DNA of 33,353 nt, taken from positions 1 through 33,353 of IMG/VR virus record IMGVR_UViG_3300045988_174038. One strand, written 5' to 3'. A program made the translations under genes and the position numbers. This document shows, piece after piece, positions 3,193 through 32,980 of the stretch; positions within the stretch are counted from its first letter, which is position 1; each line of letters opens with the position of its first letter. The notes under the pieces were generated by a model, which worked only from the letters and a program-made list of their open reading frames with translations, ran no database searches and had not been told where the DNA came from. This stretch comes from a virus.

Positions 3193-3371
3193 GTCAAGAA
3201 GTAGCGATAAGGGACGACCGAACAACGGTACGTTCCTATTGCGCTATTCTCCCCTCTTTTGCGCAGTCGCTATGCTTGGCTGACCTTCCTAATGGGCGGT
3301 TTGCGGAGTTCCGTTGAAAAATTCCGCACCTTTACAAATACAGCCCCCCCCCCGTGGGGAGAGGTGATAAT
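3193..3371 (+). promoter_or_regulatory. Structured ~180-nt 5' leader of the packaging/structural operon
   Basis: No convincing ORF. There is a long imperfect hairpin at 3200-3248 (AGTAGCGATAAGGGACGACCG / CGGTACGTTCCTATTGCGCTATT). A second hairpin pairs TGCGGA 3302-3307 with TCCGCA 3323-3328. C10 lies at 3344-3353. UUCUCCCC (3247-3254) is complementary to the SD GGGGAGAG (3356-3363). Confidence 0.5.
3344..3353 (+). repeat. C10 homopolymer in the P2 leader, 2 nt upstream of the SD
   Basis: Counted directly: cag-CCCCCCCCCC-gtggggagagg. Confidence 0.95.
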
Positions 3372-3944
3372 ATGGAACGTAGGCAAAACGATTGGTCGGA
3401 TGTCGAGAAAGATGACGGCAAGAGCAGTGGCAATATTGGGTTGCCATTTGGACTTTGTGAGAAATACGGCATAAAGCTACCCGAAAACGCAACACCCCGT
3501 GTAGCGTGGGATATGTTGAAAGAAAAGCGTGGTATAGAGCCGCCGTGGACGGACGATGGCGCAAAACAGTGGACGGACGGTAAACCCACCGTGCAACAAA
3601 AAGAGCCGCCACAAACGAAACAAACGGCTTACGACGTAATCGAAAATAAAGAGGGACGATACAAAATACACGGCGAGCTAATAACGGCAAAACCGTACAG
3701 TCTTATTGAAAGTTGGATAAGTGTATCGAAACGTGGTTACGGCTATTATTTTGGCATTGATGTCGGCGGAAAAAAATATTTTGTTTCAATTGACTCCAAA
3801 ACGGCAAATGACCGACGTTGGGTTGAGCCGTCGATATTAGGCTATAAAAATATGAAAGTTAGCGCAAACGGATATATATACGTCGACACGAAAGGGTATG
3901 CTAATTTTGTAATAAAAGATTTGAATAATTTTTCAAAAATCTAA
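3372..3944 (+). CDS. Hypothetical protein, 190 aa (first gene of the P2 operon)
   Basis: ATG 3372 lies 7 nt after GGGGAGAGGTG. It is the internal start of track ORF 3354-3944. No family recognised. Confidence 0.75.
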   Translation: MERRQNDWSDVEKDDGKSSGNIGLPFGLCEKYGIKLPENATPRVAWDMLKEKRGIEPPWTDDGAKQWTDGKPTVQQKEPPQTKQTAYDVIENKEGRYKIHGELITAKPYSLIESWISVSKRGYGYYFGIDVGGKKYFVSIDSKTANDRRWVEPSILGYKNMKVSANGYIYVDTKGYANFVIKDLNNFSKI

Positions 3945-3965: not shown

Positions 3966-4538
3966 ATGCAAGTTAAAATGCCGACGGCTGAAATGGTTGA
4001 CATTGCGCTATTAAAGCCGTACAAAAAGAACACAAAGCGACACAATCAAACGCAAATAGACAACGTTGCGGAAAGTATCCGCAAATTCGGGTTCGTGCAG
4101 CCGTTTGTTATCGACAAAAACAATGAAGTTGTAATCGGGCATTGTCGGCTGTTGGCGGCGCAAAAACTCGGCATAACGGAATTGCCGTGCGTTCGGGTAG
4201 ATTATCTGACGGCGGCTCAAGTCAAGGCATTGCGTATTTTGGACAACAAGCTCAACGAGAGCGAGTGGGACTTGGACTTTTTGAACGAGGAATTGCCCGA
4301 AATCGATTTGGCAGGGTTTGACGTAGACTTCCCGAACGATATTAGCGGAGTTATGGATACTCTATTAGAGGACGGTTTTTCGCTTGACAAAGACCTAAGG
4401 GGCGGCGATGACGGTACGTTTGAAATCTCGCTTGCAATACCAAATGAATACGATGAACAAGTACACGAGTTCATAAGAAAGAGTGGTAAAGACCCATTGG
4501 TGGCGTGCGTTTTGGAGGCTTGTAAAAATGGCGATTGA
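3966..4538 (+). CDS. ParB-like N-terminal (ParB/Srx nuclease-type) domain protein
   Basis: The segment ..IALLKPYKKNTKRHNQTQIDNVAESIRKFGFVQPFVIDKNNEVVIGHCRLLAAQKLG.. matches the ParB N-terminal domain pattern found in phage ParB-like proteins. Confidence 0.8.
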   Translation: MQVKMPTAEMVDIALLKPYKKNTKRHNQTQIDNVAESIRKFGFVQPFVIDKNNEVVIGHCRLLAAQKLGITELPCVRVDYLTAAQVKALRILDNKLNESEWDLDFLNEELPEIDLAGFDVDFPNDISGVMDTLLEDGFSLDKDLRGGDDGTFEISLAIPNEYDEQVHEFIRKSGKDPLVACVLEACKNGD

Positions 4539-4764
4539 TTGCGGTAGTCAAATTATTTTGTGCGACTTGCCGATACGCTACGATACGTACACAGGTTGCT
4601 CACACGCTTGCGCTTATTGCTTTGTAAAAAAGAAAAGGGATATATCACAAATTGCGGTTGACGCAAGTATCGATACACTTAAAAAGTTCATAAAGGGCGA
4701 AAGGACACAACAGACACGCTGGTGCGATTGGAATATACCTCTTCACTGGGGGGGGGGCAAGTGA
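4528..4764 (+). CDS. Radical SAM (SplB/COG1533-like) protein, N-terminal fragment ending just after the G10 tract
   Basis: ATG 4528. A CxxxCxxC cluster (CSHACAYC) follows ..YDTYTGCSHACAYCF... The ORF ends ..IPLHWGGGK*, one codon after the G10 tract. Confidence 0.8.
   Translation: MAIDCGSQIILCDLPIRYDTYTGCSHACAYCFVKKKRDISQIAVDASIDTLKKFIKGERTQQTRWCDWNIPLHWGGGK
4748..4757 (+). repeat. G10 homopolymer inside the radical SAM gene
   Basis: Counted directly: cact-GGGGGGGGGG-caagtga. Confidence 0.95.
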
Positions 4765-4810
4765 CCCGTTTCAACCGTTAGAAAAGAAAGCGAGAGCCTC
4801 ATATAGGGCG

Positions 4811-5548
4811 TTGCAAATATTCGCTGAAAGTAAATATCCTTTTGTCGTATCAACGAAAGGTAAGCTAATAGCCGATGATGAGTATTTAGCATTGCTTGAT
4901 AAATGCAACTGCGTAGTTCAAATATCGGCGGCTTGCGGTGAGTACGATAAGCTTGAAAAAGGTGCGCCAACATTCGATGAACGAGTTGAAATAATGAGAA
5001 AGGTCGCTCCGCATTGCAAGCGGCTAATCGTCCGTATTCAGCCCTATGTTGTAGAATGTCACAACAGTATTATGATGCAAAGCCTACAAAGGTTTAAGGA
5101 CGCTGGTGTGTACGGTGTAACTGTTGAGGGAATGAAATTCCAAAGAGCAGTCAAGGGCATGGAAAAATGCGCTGGCGATGTCGTGTATCCGATTGCGATA
5201 CTTAGGTCGAGGTTTTCCGAAATCAAAGAAGAGTGCCACCGTTTAGGTTTGGCGTTTTTCTGCGCCGAGAATAGACTACGCTCAATGGGTGATGACCTAT
5301 GTTGTTGTGGAATCGCGGGTCTTGACGGTTTTACAACAAATAAATTCAATTACAATCATATATTCAATGGTGATTTTGAAAAACCCACCGAGAATATGAA
5401 ACAAAAAGGCACAGCACAATTATTTTCGGCACTATTCCAAAATGCAGGAATTGCGGCGGTACTCCGTAATCGTTCGTTCGTAGAAGCGATGTTGAGCAAT
5501 GATACACGCCGTTGCGCCAGCAAAGTCTTTGGGAGAGTGCGTAAATGA
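4811..5548 (+). CDS. Radical SAM protein, C-terminal part in the +1 frame (frame is open and protein-like from the tract at about 4758)
   Basis: The +1 frame reads SDPFQPLEKKARASYRALQIFAESKYPFVVSTKGKLIADD... immediately after the tract. This is the expected continuation of SplB-like radical SAM proteins. Only a TTG (4811) is available as a separate start. Confidence 0.75.
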   Translation: MQIFAESKYPFVVSTKGKLIADDEYLALLDKCNCVVQISAACGEYDKLEKGAPTFDERVEIMRKVAPHCKRLIVRIQPYVVECHNSIMMQSLQRFKDAGVYGVTVEGMKFQRAVKGMEKCAGDVVYPIAILRSRFSEIKEECHRLGLAFFCAENRLRSMGDDLCCCGIAGLDGFTTNKFNYNHIFNGDFEKPTENMKQKGTAQLFSALFQNAGIAAVLRNRSFVEAMLSNDTRRCASKVFGRVRK

Positions 5549-19956: not shown

Positions 19957-20508
19957 ATGGCGAAAAACAATAATTTAACGGACTTCCTAACCGATGTAGC
20001 CGACGCTATTCGGGAAAAGGACGGCACGACAGGGACGATTAACCCACAAGATTTCAGCGACAAAATCAAGGCGATACAAACAGGCTTGGACACGTCTGAC
20101 GGCAACATCGAGCCTACAACAGTGTTGAAAGGCTACAAAGGCTACGCAAAAGGTGTGGCTGTTGATGGTGCGATTGAAACGTATGACGGGACGGTGGAGG
20201 ATGTTGGGTTTACCGTAACAATGAATTTCAGCGGTCCAACAGTGACCAATATGGGTTTTTACAGTTTGGACGCAGGTAGTACTTGGATAGATTTATTTGC
20301 CACCGAGCAAACGCAATTAGTATTGAACAATGTCAAACAAATAATGTTCAAGGCACAAGGCGACTATTCCCATTATATATCTATAAGTGGGGATGGTTTC
20401 AGCAGTTTGTATATTAACGGTTCTGTCGGACCAAGTACTACGGAGCAAACACCGAATATTACTCTTACGCAAAATATGGTTGTTGACATTGGTACAGGCA
20501 GTGATTAA
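19957..20508 (+). CDS. Tail fibre/RBP-associated protein, 183 aa
   Basis: The N-terminus MAKNNNLTDFLTDVADAIREKDGTTGTINPQDFSDKIKAI is a recurrent N-terminal motif of fibre proteins in Gram-positive phages (from my recollection, not searched). Confidence 0.6.
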   Translation: MAKNNNLTDFLTDVADAIREKDGTTGTINPQDFSDKIKAIQTGLDTSDGNIEPTTVLKGYKGYAKGVAVDGAIETYDGTVEDVGFTVTMNFSGPTVTNMGFYSLDAGSTWIDLFATEQTQLVLNNVKQIMFKAQGDYSHYISISGDGFSSLYINGSVGPSTTEQTPNITLTQNMVVDIGTGSD

Positions 20509-20581: not shown

Positions 20582-21760
20582 ATGAACGAAATAAAAATCT
20601 TATCCGACAGGATAATCATAGATGGTCACGCTGATACACGAGAGCAATGCGAAACTGCAACAATGTTGGCAAATCTATTGTCAGCACAAGGCAGTGGTTT
20701 TAATTGCGTTGAGTATCGAAGTGGCTATGCCGAGTTTAAGAAAAGCGATGTTGTCAAGTTGGCTGATAGTGAGTTGAAGTTTGTTAGTGGTGAACCTGTT
20801 AGCTATAAAACAATATATGTAAATGGTAATAGGGTCGAAATTTCAGACACTATGGGCAATACTTGGCAAGAGCTTGAAACCTATAATAGCCAATATAGAA
20901 TTGAAGGTAATACCGTAGTTTGGAGGAGTGATGACACAATTTTGCAATACAACGGTGTTGATGTATTACCAACCGATACCATTGTAGCGAACAGACAATA
21001 CACAACTCGCTCGTCATTCGACGGCAAAATCAACATCACAAAATCAGCAGGCGTTGTCCTCAAAACGCAAGGTAAGTATTGCGACAAAGACATAACTGTT
21101 GTACCCGTACTTGAAGAAAAGAGCGTAACCCCGACTGAAAGCGCACAAGAGATTGTACCGAGTGACGGAAACTGCGGTATTAGCAAAGTAACCGTCGGAG
21201 CGGTACAAACTGAAACAAAAACGATAACTCCGACTACAAATCAACAGACGTTCACTCCTACAAGTGGCAAGTACTTCAAGCAAGTCATTTGTCAAGCAAT
21301 ACAAGCCTACCAAGGCACGGCAACACCCGCACAAGGTGAACAGACAATCACCCCGACAAGCGGTAAGTTTTTCAGTTCGTTCAAAGTAGGTGCAATACCG
21401 AGTGACTATGTAATACCGAGTGGTACATTGCAAATCACGGCTAACGGCGCAAAGGACGTTACAAACTACAAGAATGTCAACGTAAATGTAGAGCCGAATT
21501 TGGAGCAAAAGACTGTGACAATCACCGAAAATGGTACGACCGAAGTTACCCCTACAACGGGCAAGGACGGTATGAGCAAAGTCACTGTAACGACAAATGT
21601 CCCGACGGCAAGTGCTGTTGAAGAGGTTGCGACAGCAAGTGCAATGAACGCATTGTTGGTAGAAGCTAATGTTGGCAAGTACTACAAGTTTACAGGCACG
21701 ACCGATAGCAACTACACCAACGGCGACCTTTACCTTGTTGAGGGGGGGGGCAGTGAGTAG
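20582..21760 (+). CDS. Fibre/receptor-binding protein A, upstream ORF (392 aa) ending just after the G9 tract
   Basis: Shares an N-terminal block with RBP B (GNTVVWRSDDTILQYNGVDVLPTDTIVANRQYTTRS). It has tandem ~30-aa T/P/Q-rich repeats (..TPT..Q...P.SGK.F..V.V.AI..). It ends ..GDLYLVEGGGSE*. Confidence 0.8.
   Translation: MNEIKILSDRIIIDGHADTREQCETATMLANLLSAQGSGFNCVEYRSGYAEFKKSDVVKLADSELKFVSGEPVSYKTIYVNGNRVEISDTMGNTWQELETYNSQYRIEGNTVVWRSDDTILQYNGVDVLPTDTIVANRQYTTRSSFDGKINITKSAGVVLKTQGKYCDKDITVVPVLEEKSVTPTESAQEIVPSDGNCGISKVTVGAVQTETKTITPTTNQQTFTPTSGKYFKQVICQAIQAYQGTATPAQGEQTITPTSGKFFSSFKVGAIPSDYVIPSGTLQITANGAKDVTNYKNVNVNVEPNLEQKTVTITENGTTEVTPTTGKDGMSKVTVTTNVPTASAVEEVATASAMNALLVEANVGKYYKFTGTTDSNYTNGDLYLVEGGGSE
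21742..21750 (+). repeat. G9 homopolymer at the domain junction of RBP A
   Basis: Counted directly: ttga-GGGGGGGGG-cagtgagtag. Confidence 0.95.
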
Positions 21761-22115
21761 TGGATATACGGTAAGTTATATTTTGAGCGGTGGAATGGGC
21801 GGTGCGTTAATTCCTATGTTTGTTTACAATGGTAAGAAATACGGCTACAATTCCACTAAATATCCTAACGGAGATAATAAATTTTATAAAGACGATGTAG
21901 TTGTATCTGCCGAAGAATATAGTGGTTCATATGCTATAATTGGCGAATTAAACATTCCAAGTGTACCAACAACAATTACGTGGGGATACAATGACACTTT
22001 GCAATATGCCAATAAAACAGGAGATATAACTATAACAAATGGAACATCGGGGAAACTTGACGGTACTATAATTGTTAATGGAAATGGTAGTTTCGAGATA
22101 AAAGGTACCGACTAA
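21753..22115 (+). CDS. RBP A distal domain ORF in the +1 frame (about 120 aa; frame open from 21669)
   Basis: The +1 frame reads ..GGAVSSGYTVSYILSGGMGGALIPMFVYNGKKYGYN...FEIKGTD*. A GTG at 21753 is the only nearby start. Deleting one G fuses it to 20582-21760 (510 aa). Confidence 0.6.
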   Translation: MSSGYTVSYILSGGMGGALIPMFVYNGKKYGYNSTKYPNGDNKFYKDDVVVSAEEYSGSYAIIGELNIPSVPTTITWGYNDTLQYANKTGDITITNGTSGKLDGTIIVNGNGSFEIKGTD

Positions 22116-22166
22116 TACACAGCATAAACCTTATCGGGTAGGCGGTCAAACCCGTTAGGAGAAACT

Positions 22167-22856
22167 ATGTGGAAACATAAAAACTTTATAAATTTGCAGT
22201 TGTGTGCTGGACCTATACCGTTCCCAATAGTAGTAAACGGTACAGATGTTTATATCCAAAGGCTTAGTGATAGTGGGGAAACTGGCGAGGAAACTTGGAG
22301 TTATAATGCAAGTATAAATACGGACATTTATTCAATTTCGGGCAATACTGTTGTTTGGAGTGACGGAACTATTTTGCAATATAATAGCATTGATGTTTTA
22401 CCTACTGACAATATTATTGTTGATGGTGAATACACAACTCGTACTGCCTCAACCCTCAAATTCAAACACCTCACTGACGCAGGCACTATCGGCAGTGGGA
22501 CGGTTAAGTTTAGACACTACTCGCAACAGGGGCTTAGTACGGGCGAAACGTGGGTGTTGAATAGTACTATAACAGCTCCAAGTAGTAGTATTGACAAAAA
22601 TATCGATTTTCTTTGTGTAGGTACGTCACAAAACTTCATACGTATACTGATAGAAAGCGAAGGTAGAGGTGTACATCTGGAATATTTTGCACAAGGTGAT
22701 AGTTCCACAGCAGGTACTGTTGTATCGACTGGCGGCACAGCAGTCGCTACTGAATATCGCACGCTTACGTTCGATAGTCCTGTAACCGACACGGCGTTGT
22801 TGACTTGGCTACAAGCTAACGGAACAAAGCAAGGTGGGGGGGGGGCAAGTAATTAA
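22167..22856 (+). CDS. Fibre/receptor-binding protein B, upstream ORF (229 aa) ending just after the G10 tract
   Basis: The paralogous block GNTVVWSDGTILQYNSIDVLPTDNIIVDGEYTTRT. It ends ..LLTWLQANGTKQGGGGASN*. Confidence 0.75.
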   Translation: MWKHKNFINLQLCAGPIPFPIVVNGTDVYIQRLSDSGETGEETWSYNASINTDIYSISGNTVVWSDGTILQYNSIDVLPTDNIIVDGEYTTRTASTLKFKHLTDAGTIGSGTVKFRHYSQQGLSTGETWVLNSTITAPSSSIDKNIDFLCVGTSQNFIRILIESEGRGVHLEYFAQGDSSTAGTVVSTGGTAVATEYRTLTFDSPVTDTALLTWLQANGTKQGGGGASN

Positions 22857-23211
22857 AGCAGGGACGTATCAGTTTATTGAAGACATAAATTTTCCAACTG
22901 GTATAGATATAACTGAAAAAATAACTGCTACTATAAATACTTTGACAGAGAATGATGTTTACGGTAGTCAAAAAACCATTGATACAATCGTGGTAGCGCA
23001 GTCGGGTGATGCAGGTGCTTTATCATTATTTAATGAAGAACCGTATTATGGTATAACACACGCATTTGACTGGGAATATACTACCGAAAATGGTGATACG
23101 TTTTATGTTACTGACACAGCAAAACTACGAACAATAATAATCGCTACTGACCAAACAGTAACTAACGAATTGTATCAGTGGTTCACTGCCAACACAACAA
23201 AACTCTCATAA
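22834..23211 (+). CDS. RBP B distal domain ORF in the +1 frame (125 aa from GTG 22834)
   Basis: Reads (GGG)QVIKAGTYQFIEDINFPTG...LRTIIIATDQTVTNELYQWFTANTTKLS*. There is no SD upstream of the GTG. Deleting one G fuses it to 22167-22856 (347 aa). Confidence 0.6.
   Translation: MGGGQVIKAGTYQFIEDINFPTGIDITEKITATINTLTENDVYGSQKTIDTIVVAQSGDAGALSLFNEEPYYGITHAFDWEYTTENGDTFYVTDTAKLRTIIIATDQTVTNELYQWFTANTTKLS
22836..22845 (+). repeat. G10 homopolymer at the domain junction of RBP B
   Basis: Counted directly: aaggt-GGGGGGGGGG-caagtaattaa. Confidence 0.95.
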
Positions 23212-23224
23212 AGGAGACAAGCAA

Positions 23225-23497
23225 ATGCGTAAAGGCTTTACCCTTGTAGAGCTCATTGTAGTAATCGCACTCATAAGCTTATTGACAGCTTCTGTATTTG
23301 CGTGGTACAACGAGTTCAAGGACAAACAAATTGTAGACACCAACGGCGACGGACTTGTGTACTACGACGACATCACGTTGCCAAAACCGCCGAACTATCG
23401 GGAAATTTTGAAACAATACGGTATCGACGTCGGGGAATTGACCGACGAGGAATTGAATGAACTTATAAAGGAGTTGCAAAATGGAACAAGTGATTGA
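23225..23497 (+). CDS. Prepilin-type N-terminal cleavage/methylation-motif protein, 90 aa (pilin or pseudopilin-like)
   Basis: MRKG/FTLVELIVVIALISLL matches the type IV pilin class signal: a short basic leader, Gly at -1, Phe at +1, Glu at +5 and a hydrophobic helix. RBS AAAGGAG. Confidence 0.7.
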   Translation: MRKGFTLVELIVVIALISLLTASVFAWYNEFKDKQIVDTNGDGLVYYDDITLPKPPNYREILKQYGIDVGELTDEELNELIKELQNGTSD

Positions 23498-31793: not shown

Positions 31794-32120
31794 ATGGATA
31801 GAAAAATATTCTATGCGCCGTCAACGATAAAAGCATTGTGCGAAAAGTTGATTGGGCGACTTAGCGAGTACGAAATTTTAGACATCGAAGAAGGTCTGAC
31901 CCGAATGGCGATAGGTGCTATTGAAAAGAAAGAAATATGTCTAAGAATGAGTGATTTCGTCCATCGAAATGCGAGAACCTTTTTCGTGAGTTTGGAATGG
32001 GACATTTGCGAAAATTACGATTATTATGTTATCGGTGGAGAAGTGCGAGAACTAACGATAACAAAAGACGGAAGAGTTAAAAATGAACAACTTTGTCAAG
32101 TTGGGTATCTGAGAAAATAA
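31794..32120 (+). CDS. Hypothetical protein, 108 aa
   Basis: ATG 31794 follows AAAGGAG. No family recognised. Confidence 0.65.
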   Translation: MDRKIFYAPSTIKALCEKLIGRLSEYEILDIEEGLTRMAIGAIEKKEICLRMSDFVHRNARTFFVSLEWDICENYDYYVIGGEVRELTITKDGRVKNEQLCQVGYLRK

Positions 32121-32134
32121 GAGAAGGTGATACT

Positions 32135-32980
32135 ATGTATGAACAACAGGGTTTGTGGGGCGAAACGGACTTAGAATTTGCCGAGCGCACTGCAATTGAA
32201 TTGATAAAGACGTTTGAACCCGTAGCATTGCAACGTTGTCCGGGACACGGCTACATCGTGGGTTACAGCGGTGGTAAAGACAGTGATTGCTTGGTAGACT
32301 TGTTTATCCGTAGCGGAGTAAAGTTTACTGTGATACATAACCACACAACGCTAGACATACCCGATACGGTGCGTTACGTCCGCAAACGTTTTGCAGAGTG
32401 GACTGCACAAGGTATTCCGTGCGAGGTACATAAGCCGAAAGAAAGCTTTTGGCAAATCTGCATACGCAAGAAAATGTTGCCGTTTCGCACTCGTCGCTTT
32501 TGTTGCGAGGAACTCAAAGAGTATCAACCCTACCCATTTGCCGTGTATTCGTTTGGCGTAAGACGAGCGGAAAGCAACGGTCGGGCGCAAAGACGAAACA
32601 ACATCGAAACACGCAACACAAAGAAGTACAGCGACGTTCAGCTTTTCCACTTTGACAAGTCGGAAGAAGTCCGCAACACCGATATGTGCTACACGAACAA
32701 GTACTTTATCGTCAACCCAATGGCGCAGTGGTCTACGGCTGTACGGGATAAGTACATCGCCAAGTATAACCTTGAAATCAATCCGATTTACGAAAAGTAC
32801 GGACTTGACCGTTGCGGTTGCATTATGTGCCCAATGTCAAGCGACAAAGAACGGCGCAGAGAAGCAGAGATGTCTCCGAACTATGTCAAAACGTTCAAGT
32901 GGTGTTGCGACAAGATAGCGGAACAACGGGACAATGTGGAAAGCGGCGAACAGCTATTTGACGATTATTTGCATTGGTGA
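32135..32980 (+). CDS. PAPS reductase-family PP-loop protein (DndC/IbrA-like)
   Basis: ..GYIVGYSGGKDSDCLVDL.. is the PP-loop SGGKDS motif of the PAPS reductase/ATP-pyrophosphatase family. A C-terminal Cys cluster ..DRCGCIMCPM.. and ..KWCCDK.. is present. Confidence 0.85.
   Translation: MYEQQGLWGETDLEFAERTAIELIKTFEPVALQRCPGHGYIVGYSGGKDSDCLVDLFIRSGVKFTVIHNHTTLDIPDTVRYVRKRFAEWTAQGIPCEVHKPKESFWQICIRKKMLPFRTRRFCCEELKEYQPYPFAVYSFGVRRAESNGRAQRRNNIETRNTKKYSDVQLFHFDKSEEVRNTDMCYTNKYFIVNPMAQWSTAVRDKYIAKYNLEINPIYEKYGLDRCGCIMCPMSSDKERRREAEMSPNYVKTFKWCCDKIAEQRDNVESGEQLFDDYLHW

Follow-up and report, generated by a model that had tools for sequence, protein, structure and literature searches.

A G9 Tract at a Module Joint of a Tail-Fibre-Like Gene as a Probable Slipped-Strand Contingency Locus in an Uncultivated Tailed Phage

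Phase-variable surface genes of Campylobacter, Neisseria and Haemophilus carry poly-G or poly-C tracts. Among phages, to our knowledge, it is essentially only in those of Campylobacter that switching of host-recognition proteins by poly-G has been demonstrated. In the Fletchervirus phages of Campylobacter, hypermutable tracts of 7 to 11 G residues are found in receptor-binding protein (RBP) genes (Sorensen et al. 2021, Cell Rep 35:109214, as reported in bioRxiv 10.1101/2025.10.21.683753 and cited in PMC12823448). Homopolymer contingency loci, with reversible frameshifts by polymerase slippage and bet-hedging, have also been described in T2, T4 and other coliphages (Gomez, Barrick & Waters, bioRxiv 10.1101/2025.10.21.683753); according to the same preprint, the coliphage repeats are mostly runs of at least 6 bases and are underrepresented in tail-fibre genes. 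Here we describe a run of nine G residues (G9) in a tail-fibre-like gene, gene A, of a tailed-phage genome, IMG/VR record IMGVR_UViG_3300045988_174038, of which a stretch of 33,353 bp with a GC content of 45.8% was analysed (referred to below as the window). We consider it likely that this tract, which lies at a module joint, forms a slipped-strand contingency locus and that it was captured in the OFF state.

As far as Fletchervirus is described in the sources cited above, the window resembles it in having G runs of about 7 to 11 residues in phage host-recognition genes (the fibre identity being presumptive in the window) and in having several tracts per genome. A change in length shifts the frame in Fletchervirus and generates subpopulations with different fibre proteins, and an analogous frame shift is present in the window family, where tracts of G7 to G13 fit the description of poly-G in an RBP gene; gene A has no family hit, and its position after the tail genes suggests the RBP identity. 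The resemblance is that of an analogue and not of a relative. The window phage has a GC content of 46% and is unrelated to Fletchervirus, and a DNA search of 50,697 phage records detected no match to Campylobacter phages and no other relative, the one hit being an irrelevant 67-bp match. Mutation rate and phenotype were measured in the Campylobacter phages, and the window family was analysed at the level of sequence. In contrast to the coliphage repeats, the G9 and G10 runs of the window are confined to fibre joints and a radical-SAM gene, together with one intergenic site (C10).

The joint in gene A comprises the following features.
20582-22115, + strand: fibre gene A as a whole
20582-21760, + strand: upstream open reading frame (ORF) of gene A, 392 amino acids (aa), ending GGGSE-stop in the G9 state
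21742-21750, + strand: G9 homopolymer within this ORF by direct reading, the putatively hypermutable joint
21751-21760, + strand: post-tract linker CAGTGAGTAG by direct reading, read differently in each frame
21750-22115, + strand: distal-domain frame, 121 codons plus stop, +1 relative to the upstream ORF

The sequence of positions 21737 to 21760 is gttgaGGGGGGGGGcagtgagtag. An initial annotation, made from the letters of this DNA, had placed the tract between a repeat-bearing shaft and a distal domain, and its coordinates, the end of the ORF and the +1 frame to 22115 all held on direct reading. The upstream protein consists of a conserved N-terminal anchor, a variable module, approximately four repeats of about 32 aa (TPT..Q..P..GK..V.V) and a conserved end, ..VGKYYKFTGTTDSNYTNGDLYLVE. 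Its C terminus is ..TNGDLYLVEGGGSE-stop (LVEGGGSE-stop), and its sequence is identical to that of homologue P0001 (GenBank DAO90281.1). From the tract, the +1 frame runs uninterrupted to 22115, its translation being RGGAVSSGYTVSYILSGGMGG...GSFEIKGTD-stop or, in a longer form, ..GGAVSSGYTVSYILSGGMGG...GSFEIKGTD-stop. Removal of one G in silico resulted in a product of 510 aa with the junction peptide ..DLYLVEGGAVSSGYTVSY.. (also written ..LVEGGAVSSGY..). The two frames would be joined by G8 or G11, and the protein is terminated by G9 or G10. The 510-aa fibre predicted in the annotation for G8 was thus reproduced, with a natural G8 allele (locus L037) being likewise fused, and the 392-aa protein predicted for G9, which lacks the distal domain, corresponds to ORF 20582-21760. 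The two halves are annotated in GenBank as two hypothetical proteins (DAO90281.1 and DAO90280.1, covering 20582-21760 and part of 21750-22115), the second being called from an internal ATG with a length of 106 aa; gene callers split these fibres systematically.

The chance level of such tracts was determined by counting the pattern GGGGGGGGG on both strands of the window and of 100 dinucleotide-preserving shuffles. Seven matches were detected at four tracts (C10 at 3344, G10 at 4748, G9 at 21742 and G10 at 22836) against a shuffle mean of 0.05, and none of the 100 shuffles reached seven matches. The G9 tract is not a chance feature. At three of the four tracts, abutting long ORFs in different frames meet exactly at the run. 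A scan for promoters and terminators around the joint detected no enrichment.

The linker following the tract is read as Ala-Val-Ser-Ser (AVSS) in the fused frame, as Ser-Glu-TAG in the G9 frame, where the TAG at 21758-21760 ends the present reading, and as Gln-TGA in the G10 frame, where the TGA at 21754-21756 ends the third. About ten linker variants were found after fibre-locus tracts of at least 7 G, including CAGTGAGTAG, CAGTAACTGA, CAACACTAATTAA, CAAGTAATTAA, CAGTAATTAAGG, CGATAAAATGA and ACAGTAACTCCTGA. Every variant stops both out-of-frame readings within 6 codons, usually at 1 and 3; when in-frame positions were drawn at random from window genes, such double stops were present at only 5.3% of them. 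As both out-of-frame readings stop early, the out-of-frame products would be clean truncations with a tail of one or two residues.

The distal ORF is a genuine coding sequence. Comparison with the distal frame of locus L023 detected 10 synonymous codon differences and 1 nonsynonymous difference, with 10 of the 11 nucleotide differences at third codon positions, and there were no internal stops over the 121 codons. An AlphaFold2 (AF2) model of the isolated domain, based on a nine-sequence alignment, was compact and all-beta, with a predicted local distance difference test score (pLDDT) of 91.3 and a predicted template modelling score (pTM) of 0.84. The initial annotation had made its reading depend on the downstream ORF being conserved and protein-like in homologues of the upstream ORF, and it was both, as judged from the 10:1 excess of synonymous changes, the confident model and the fused relatives described below. 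In structure prediction, which the annotation had proposed as a check, the isolated domain was modelled well, and the AF2 model of a whole fused homologue, P0021, was poor (pLDDT of 53, with 76 to 88 for the repeat region alone). Another explanation is decay of the gene, in which a fixed frameshift would have inactivated it and the distal ORF would be a dying remnant. In the assembly the gene is out of frame, as decay would have it, but the synonymous excess, the open frame and the confident fold argue against this explanation, as does the occurrence of the break at the same tract in many lineages with in-frame counterparts. Decay is extremely improbable, and the pseudogene reading was rejected on the codon-position evidence.

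When a profile of the distal domain was run against 1.84 billion representatives, only 3 real clusters were obtained. Homologues with 62% identity form the C terminus of 196-aa proteins whose N terminus matches window gene 19957-20508, and another homologue (P0246) is carried on a third scaffold; homologues of the domain are thus attached to three different scaffolds. A fold search with the domain model yielded no significant match in the PDB (best E value, 0.16), and the best matches in BFVD were uncharacterised proteins with E values of 2e-3 or worse. As no fold or family match was obtained, it is from its position that the distal domain is presumed to contact the receptor.

With the in-silico fusion as query, 1,111 homologous proteins were obtained, of which the best 120 were analysed. 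The motif ..G[DE][LIV]Y[LIVM]VE was present in 116 of these 120. Fusions accounted for 94 of the 116 (81%) and had a C-terminal domain of 74 to 123 aa after 0 to 4 Gly residues, and the other 22 ended within 8 residues of the motif (GGQ, GGGQ, GGGSE, GGGSN, GGGGE and similar, each followed by a stop). Conservation was at least 90% up to ..NGDLYLVE and was absent beyond LVE (125 homologues). At least 12 unrelated types of distal domain follow the joint, and identical types occur on different scaffolds. The varying number of Gly residues in in-frame alleles, from 1 to 4, indicated that the linker tolerates changes of length in three-base steps. The distal domain of the window itself is fused in frame in L037 (G8), L023, P0003, P0015, P0021 and P0271. 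Two properties of a fibre or RBP were found for gene A: its proximal part is conserved and its distal part hypervariable and exchangeable, and it is located in the tail module, after the tail genes and ahead of a pilin-like gene. Likeness in sequence or fold to a characterised fibre or RBP was not detected: searches of Pfam and PHROGs with the upstream and downstream parts of A and of the neighbouring cassette B, and with the in-silico fusions, gave no match, and a family profile gave none among PDB sequences.

Joint DNA was recovered from 38 loci, with tract lengths being the consensus lengths of assemblies; L037 derives from ERR6170279, L022 from ERR7738584, L035 from ERR11473944, and L011 and L013 from ERZ808286 and ERZ808277. 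The homologous tract ranged from G7 to G13 in relatives. Uninterrupted tracts were in frame in L037 (G8), L023 (GAA+G7), L030-32 (G7), L022 (G11) and L033 (G13), with both L037 and L023 being fused to the distal domain of the window. Uninterrupted tracts were out of frame in the window (G9), L001 (G9), L002 (G10), L011 (G9), L013 (G8), L012 (G10), L014/L017/L018 (G9) and L038 (G7). Approximately 5 of 15 distinct long-tract alleles were in frame, which is the proportion expected from a randomised frame. All four alleles with interrupted tracts (GGTGGAGCA in L015, GGTGGGGCA and GGGGGTGGGGCA) were in frame (L015, L025, L034 and L026-29), and hence the stabilised alleles were all fusions. Loci L011 and L013, from two samples, were compared over 801 bp; apart from a single substitution, only the tract distinguished them (G9 and G8, respectively), and both were out of frame. 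Three properties of a simple-sequence-repeat contingency locus were thus observed: a homopolymer of at least about 7 nt inside a reading frame (G9 in the ORF of gene A), a toggle between full-length and truncated products by changes of one nucleotide (G8 in silico and natural alleles), and a difference in length between near-identical genomes (L011 and L013; the window and L035, described below). The proposal in the initial annotation that a tract at this domain boundary could add or remove a tip gained support from the presence of G7 to G13 at the same joint, with matching in-frame and out-of-frame states.

To restore the frame, certain data sets required a change of -1 nt and other data sets one of +1 nt, and the tract is therefore not explained by a fixed recoding signal or by a uniform miscall. 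Programmed recoding would involve slippage of RNA polymerase on G9 or +1 slippage of the ribosome on GGG, with the 392-aa and ~510-aa products being made in a set ratio from one genotype. Polymerases and ribosomes are prone to slip on long homopolymers, the in-frame share of about one-third looks as if the DNA frame were unselected, and a radical-SAM enzyme of this phage, presumably useful, is likewise out of frame. Against recoding, there is no fixed or conserved frame relation (81% plain fusions, with some of the other relatives requiring -1 nt and some +1 nt), and the interrupted in-frame alleles indicate that selection favours a plain fusion in the long term. Furthermore, documented transcriptional slippage in bacteria occurs mainly on A/T runs. 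Folding of the RNA downstream of the tract detected no structure (minimum free energy of -22.4 kcal/mol versus -25.0 kcal/mol for shuffles; z = +0.88), and a classical frameshift stimulator was ruled out on this basis. Recoding is accordingly a quite improbable explanation. The tail assembly chaperones G and GT of lambda are produced by a programmed -1 frameshift and share with the window two overlapping frames in a tail-region gene and a short and a long product. In contrast to the lambda genes, the frame relation in the window is +1 and unconserved, most homologues are plain fusions, and no stimulatory structure is present.

The distal domain could also be expressed separately. The initial annotation had raised this alternative, in which the codon GTG at 21753-21755 in the downstream frame is an internal start. 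In the G9 or G10 state, a 120-aa distal polypeptide would be made from this GTG by termination-reinitiation, with the G run acting as a Shine-Dalgarno (SD) sequence, and would join the shaft noncovalently, so that the tract would toggle between fused and split forms. The GTG is in frame and lies 2 nt past the G-rich run. The stops of the out-of-frame readings are 0 to 5 nt away from this codon, and the G10 frame has an overlapping GTGA. GTG 21753 was chosen as the start by gene callers, including the one used at ENA for L036, an independent assembly of 33,241 bp, and a naturally split architecture is found in L016 and L009. The start thus stood up as an in-frame codon with a predicted 120-aa product but not as a general device: in cassettes with CAGTAACTGAA, CAACACTAATT and CAAGTAATTAA, the tract is not followed by an ATG, GTG or TTG, and hence split expression cannot be the general rule. 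Moreover, in every in-frame relative the domain is covalently attached to some scaffold, and all four interrupted-tract alleles are fused. Split expression is rather unlikely on this evidence.

The remaining tracts of the window, and the cassette that carries one of them, are as follows.
22167-23211, + strand: fibre gene B (cassette B)
22167-22856, + strand: upstream ORF of cassette B, 229 aa, ending ..LLTWLQANGTKQGGGGASN-stop
22836-22845, + strand: G10, second joint type (..ANGTKQ / GGT G(n) / CAAGTAATTAA), out of frame in the window
22846-23211, + strand: distal-domain frame of cassette B, 122 aa (QVIKAGTYQF...TKLS-stop)
4748-4757, + strand: G10 in a radical-SAM gene (5' part, 4528-4764; 3' part, 4757-5548), out of frame
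3344-3353, + strand: C10, noncoding, about 20 nt upstream of the ATG at 3372 of a 190-aa ORF

The upstream protein of cassette B shares with gene A the module GNTVVW..ILQYN..DVLPTD..YTTR, and the tract adjoins the upstream end ..LLTWLQANGTKQ. A B-type distal domain is found directly after LVE in P0063. Cassette B is present in L038 with G9 as a single in-frame gene of 390 aa, and a B-type joint is in frame in L022 with G10 and CAGTAATTAAGG. Many relatives of cassette B end at TKQ-stop and have no tract. The G10 tract of the radical-SAM gene splits an invariant HWGG-x-SDPFQP motif, and the fused protein clears the Pfam Radical_SAM cutoff across the joint; in L035, which is ~96% identical to the window, this tract is G9 and the gene is intact at 338 aa. 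The fibre tracts lie at a domain boundary and the radical-SAM tract does not, so that the common denominator is the mutable tract. Like devices at G10 22836 and G10 4748 suggested that the phage carries a small set of switchable genes. The segment 3334-3942, which contains the C10 tract at its left edge and the 190-aa ORF, is absent from L035, and C10 could be a promoter or 5' untranslated-region phase switch on an inserted gene.

These comparisons raise the possibility of a homopolymer miscall, in which the true genome has G8 at gene A (and G9 at each of the other coding tracts) and an ordinary 510-aa fibre gene. Each of the three coding tracts in the window exceeds its in-frame counterpart in a close relative by exactly one G (G8 in L037, G9 in L038 and G9 in L035), as a miscall would predict, and the coverage of the ENA contig, judged from the record name, is only ~11x. 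That contig, L036, is an independent assembly with 100% identity to the window over 21 kb, including the G9 and G10 fibre tracts, and the same 392-aa product is found in NCBI, JGI, ENA and Logan, possibly from the same reads; both observations argue against a miscall. Many unrelated data sets furthermore contain out-of-frame alleles, with shifts in either direction, and L011 and L013 are near-identical, one G apart and both out of frame. Uniform overcalling of G runs was rejected as a general explanation on the evidence of data sets that are out of frame in the opposite direction; for the sample of the window itself a miscall is unlikely and would leave the family-level polymorphism standing.

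The explanation that we favour is therefore the slipped-strand contingency locus. Slipped-strand mispairing during replication of the phage DNA would alter the run by plus or minus one G. With G8 or G11, a fusion of ~510 aa (..LVE-Gly2-3-AVSS-distal domain) bearing the tip would be produced; with G9 or G10, a TAG or TGA 1 to 3 codons past the tract would result in the 392-aa protein without the tip. Switching would presumably occur at a high rate, reversibly and within a population. The product of gene A is presumably located in the virion as a fibre, and switching would then alter host range through receptor binding by the distal domain. Four observations weigh against this explanation. Only about one-third of long-tract alleles are in frame, which fits neutral flicker and also frame-independent expression. 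The A, B and radical-SAM tracts each carry the same excess of one G over the in-frame alleles, which reflects either a population with all three switched OFF or a +1 homopolymer call peculiar to this sample. The same strain in several samples mostly had the same consensus length (L001/L020, L002/L021 and L030-32); considered together with the difference between L011 and L013, this constancy indicated that the tract is mutable yet not chaotic. Lastly, the identification of gene A as a fibre or RBP gene draws on gene position and modular architecture.

A broader proposal can be put forward tentatively, and we hold it to be possible rather than probable. In a lineage of uncultivated phages, probably from the gut, the element G(n)-CAGTRANTRR may be a dedicated plug-and-switch joint between fibre modules. 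Such a joint would provide a shared breakpoint for at least 12 distal domains on at least 3 scaffolds and a reversible one-nucleotide switch with built-in stops that keep the truncated protein intact; in the AVSS class, an SD sequence and GTG restart would allow a two-chain fibre, and joints in series (anchor/shaft/domain/domain, over genes A and B) would allow combinatorial tips without an invertase or retroelement. The window family goes beyond Fletchervirus in having the tract at a module joint that is conserved over at least 12 distal domains and at least 2 joint types, a linker with stops in both out-of-frame readings, joints in series, and distal modules shuffled among at least 3 scaffolds. 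With bacterial contingency loci it shares slipped-strand mispairing (proposed here) and the ON/OFF logic; it differs from them in being virus borne and in that the OFF state removes only the C-terminal module and leaves the rest intact. Tropism switching is also mediated by the invertible tail-fibre segments of Mu (Gin) and P1 (Cin) and by the diversity-generating retroelement of Bordetella phage BPP-1. There, as here, the distal, host-recognising end of the fibre varies and the proximal part is constant; the window family differs in varying by frame switching and by exchange of cassettes between genomes. No invertase turned up in the window, in which no search was aimed at invertases.

An unrelated and abundant metagenomic lineage thus places long G runs exactly at the joints of fibre modules. 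In-frame and out-of-frame alleles of the same cassette are both found in nature, and hundreds of homologues are present in public assemblies. If switching within populations is confirmed, contingency loci would be a general phage strategy alongside diversity-generating retroelements and invertible segments. Such switching would also explain why gene callers split these fibres into two "hypothetical proteins" (DAO90281 and DAO90280), and G(n) followed by an all-frame stop linker would be a signature for switchable, exchangeable receptor-binding modules in viromes. Consensus genomes would underdescribe the host range of such phages.

The genome context of the fibre genes is as follows.
Head genes: large terminase (TerL), portal and minor head protein
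Between the head genes and the fibre-like genes: further structural ORFs, then ORFs of 617 aa and 921 aa
17179-19944: the 921-aa protein, upstream of the fibres, with collagen-like G-x-y repeats (GAKGEKGDTGAQGQKGDTGATG) and weak matches to tail-fibre PHROGs (E value of ~1e-5)
19957-20508, + strand: third fibre-like gene, 183 aa, with an anchor (MAKNNNLTDF...GTVEDVG) and a distal module (FTVTMNFSGPTVTNMGFYSLDAGS)
23225-23497: protein of 90 aa, immediately downstream of the fibre genes, with a methylation motif of the prepilin type at its N terminus (Pfam N_methyl; E = 3e-7)
Downstream of the N_methyl gene: replication and recombination module
32093-32980: PAPS-reductase-domain gene (Pfam E = 1.7e-17), near the right end

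The anchor of the third fibre-like gene is combined with an A-type distal domain in P0122, P0123 and P0125, and its distal module is placed after an LVE shaft in P0068, which indicated that modules are shuffled among scaffold genes. The position of the 90-aa N_methyl protein is kept in L022, L027, L033, L034, L037 and L038. The radical-SAM gene comes after a ParB_N-domain gene, and the PAPS-reductase, ParB_N and radical-SAM genes may form a DNA-modification or defence-evasion set. A scan of GTDB genomes with the fibre gave no match. The same scan with TerL detected one contig of a metagenome-assembled genome, "Clostridiales bacterium", with a relative at 77% identity, a weak hint of a Clostridiales host.

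Further joints were seen in other loci. In the more distant relatives L016 (3996-6902) and L009, the shaft gene ends naturally in ..NGDLYLVEET-stop, and after a gap of 6 nt a second ORF, which has an SD sequence and ATG of its own, encodes a TWxLN-type domain that continues into a Hint/intein-like domain. Locus L022 (3727-4987) has a G9 tract at 3985-3993 between a stand-alone 90-aa "HTLT"-type ORF and the fibre gene that follows (MTINITKSAG..). At this joint, the third type, G8 or G11 would fuse the ORFs (..TESGGGDKMTINITKS..), which suggests that modules can be chained. In the window, positions 22126-22165 between genes A and B contain the element AAACCTTATCGGGTAGGCGGTCAAACCCGTTAGGAGAAAC with a CGGGT...ACCCG hairpin. 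The element is nearly identical after the TKQ stop in L026-L032 and may be a conserved intercassette spacer or ribosome-binding-site element. Fibre-locus genes of L026, L028-L030 and L033 have Hint/intein-like and DUF6273 domains in precomputed Pfam hits, and the fused B-type gene of L022 matches DUF6273 with an E value of 6e-11.

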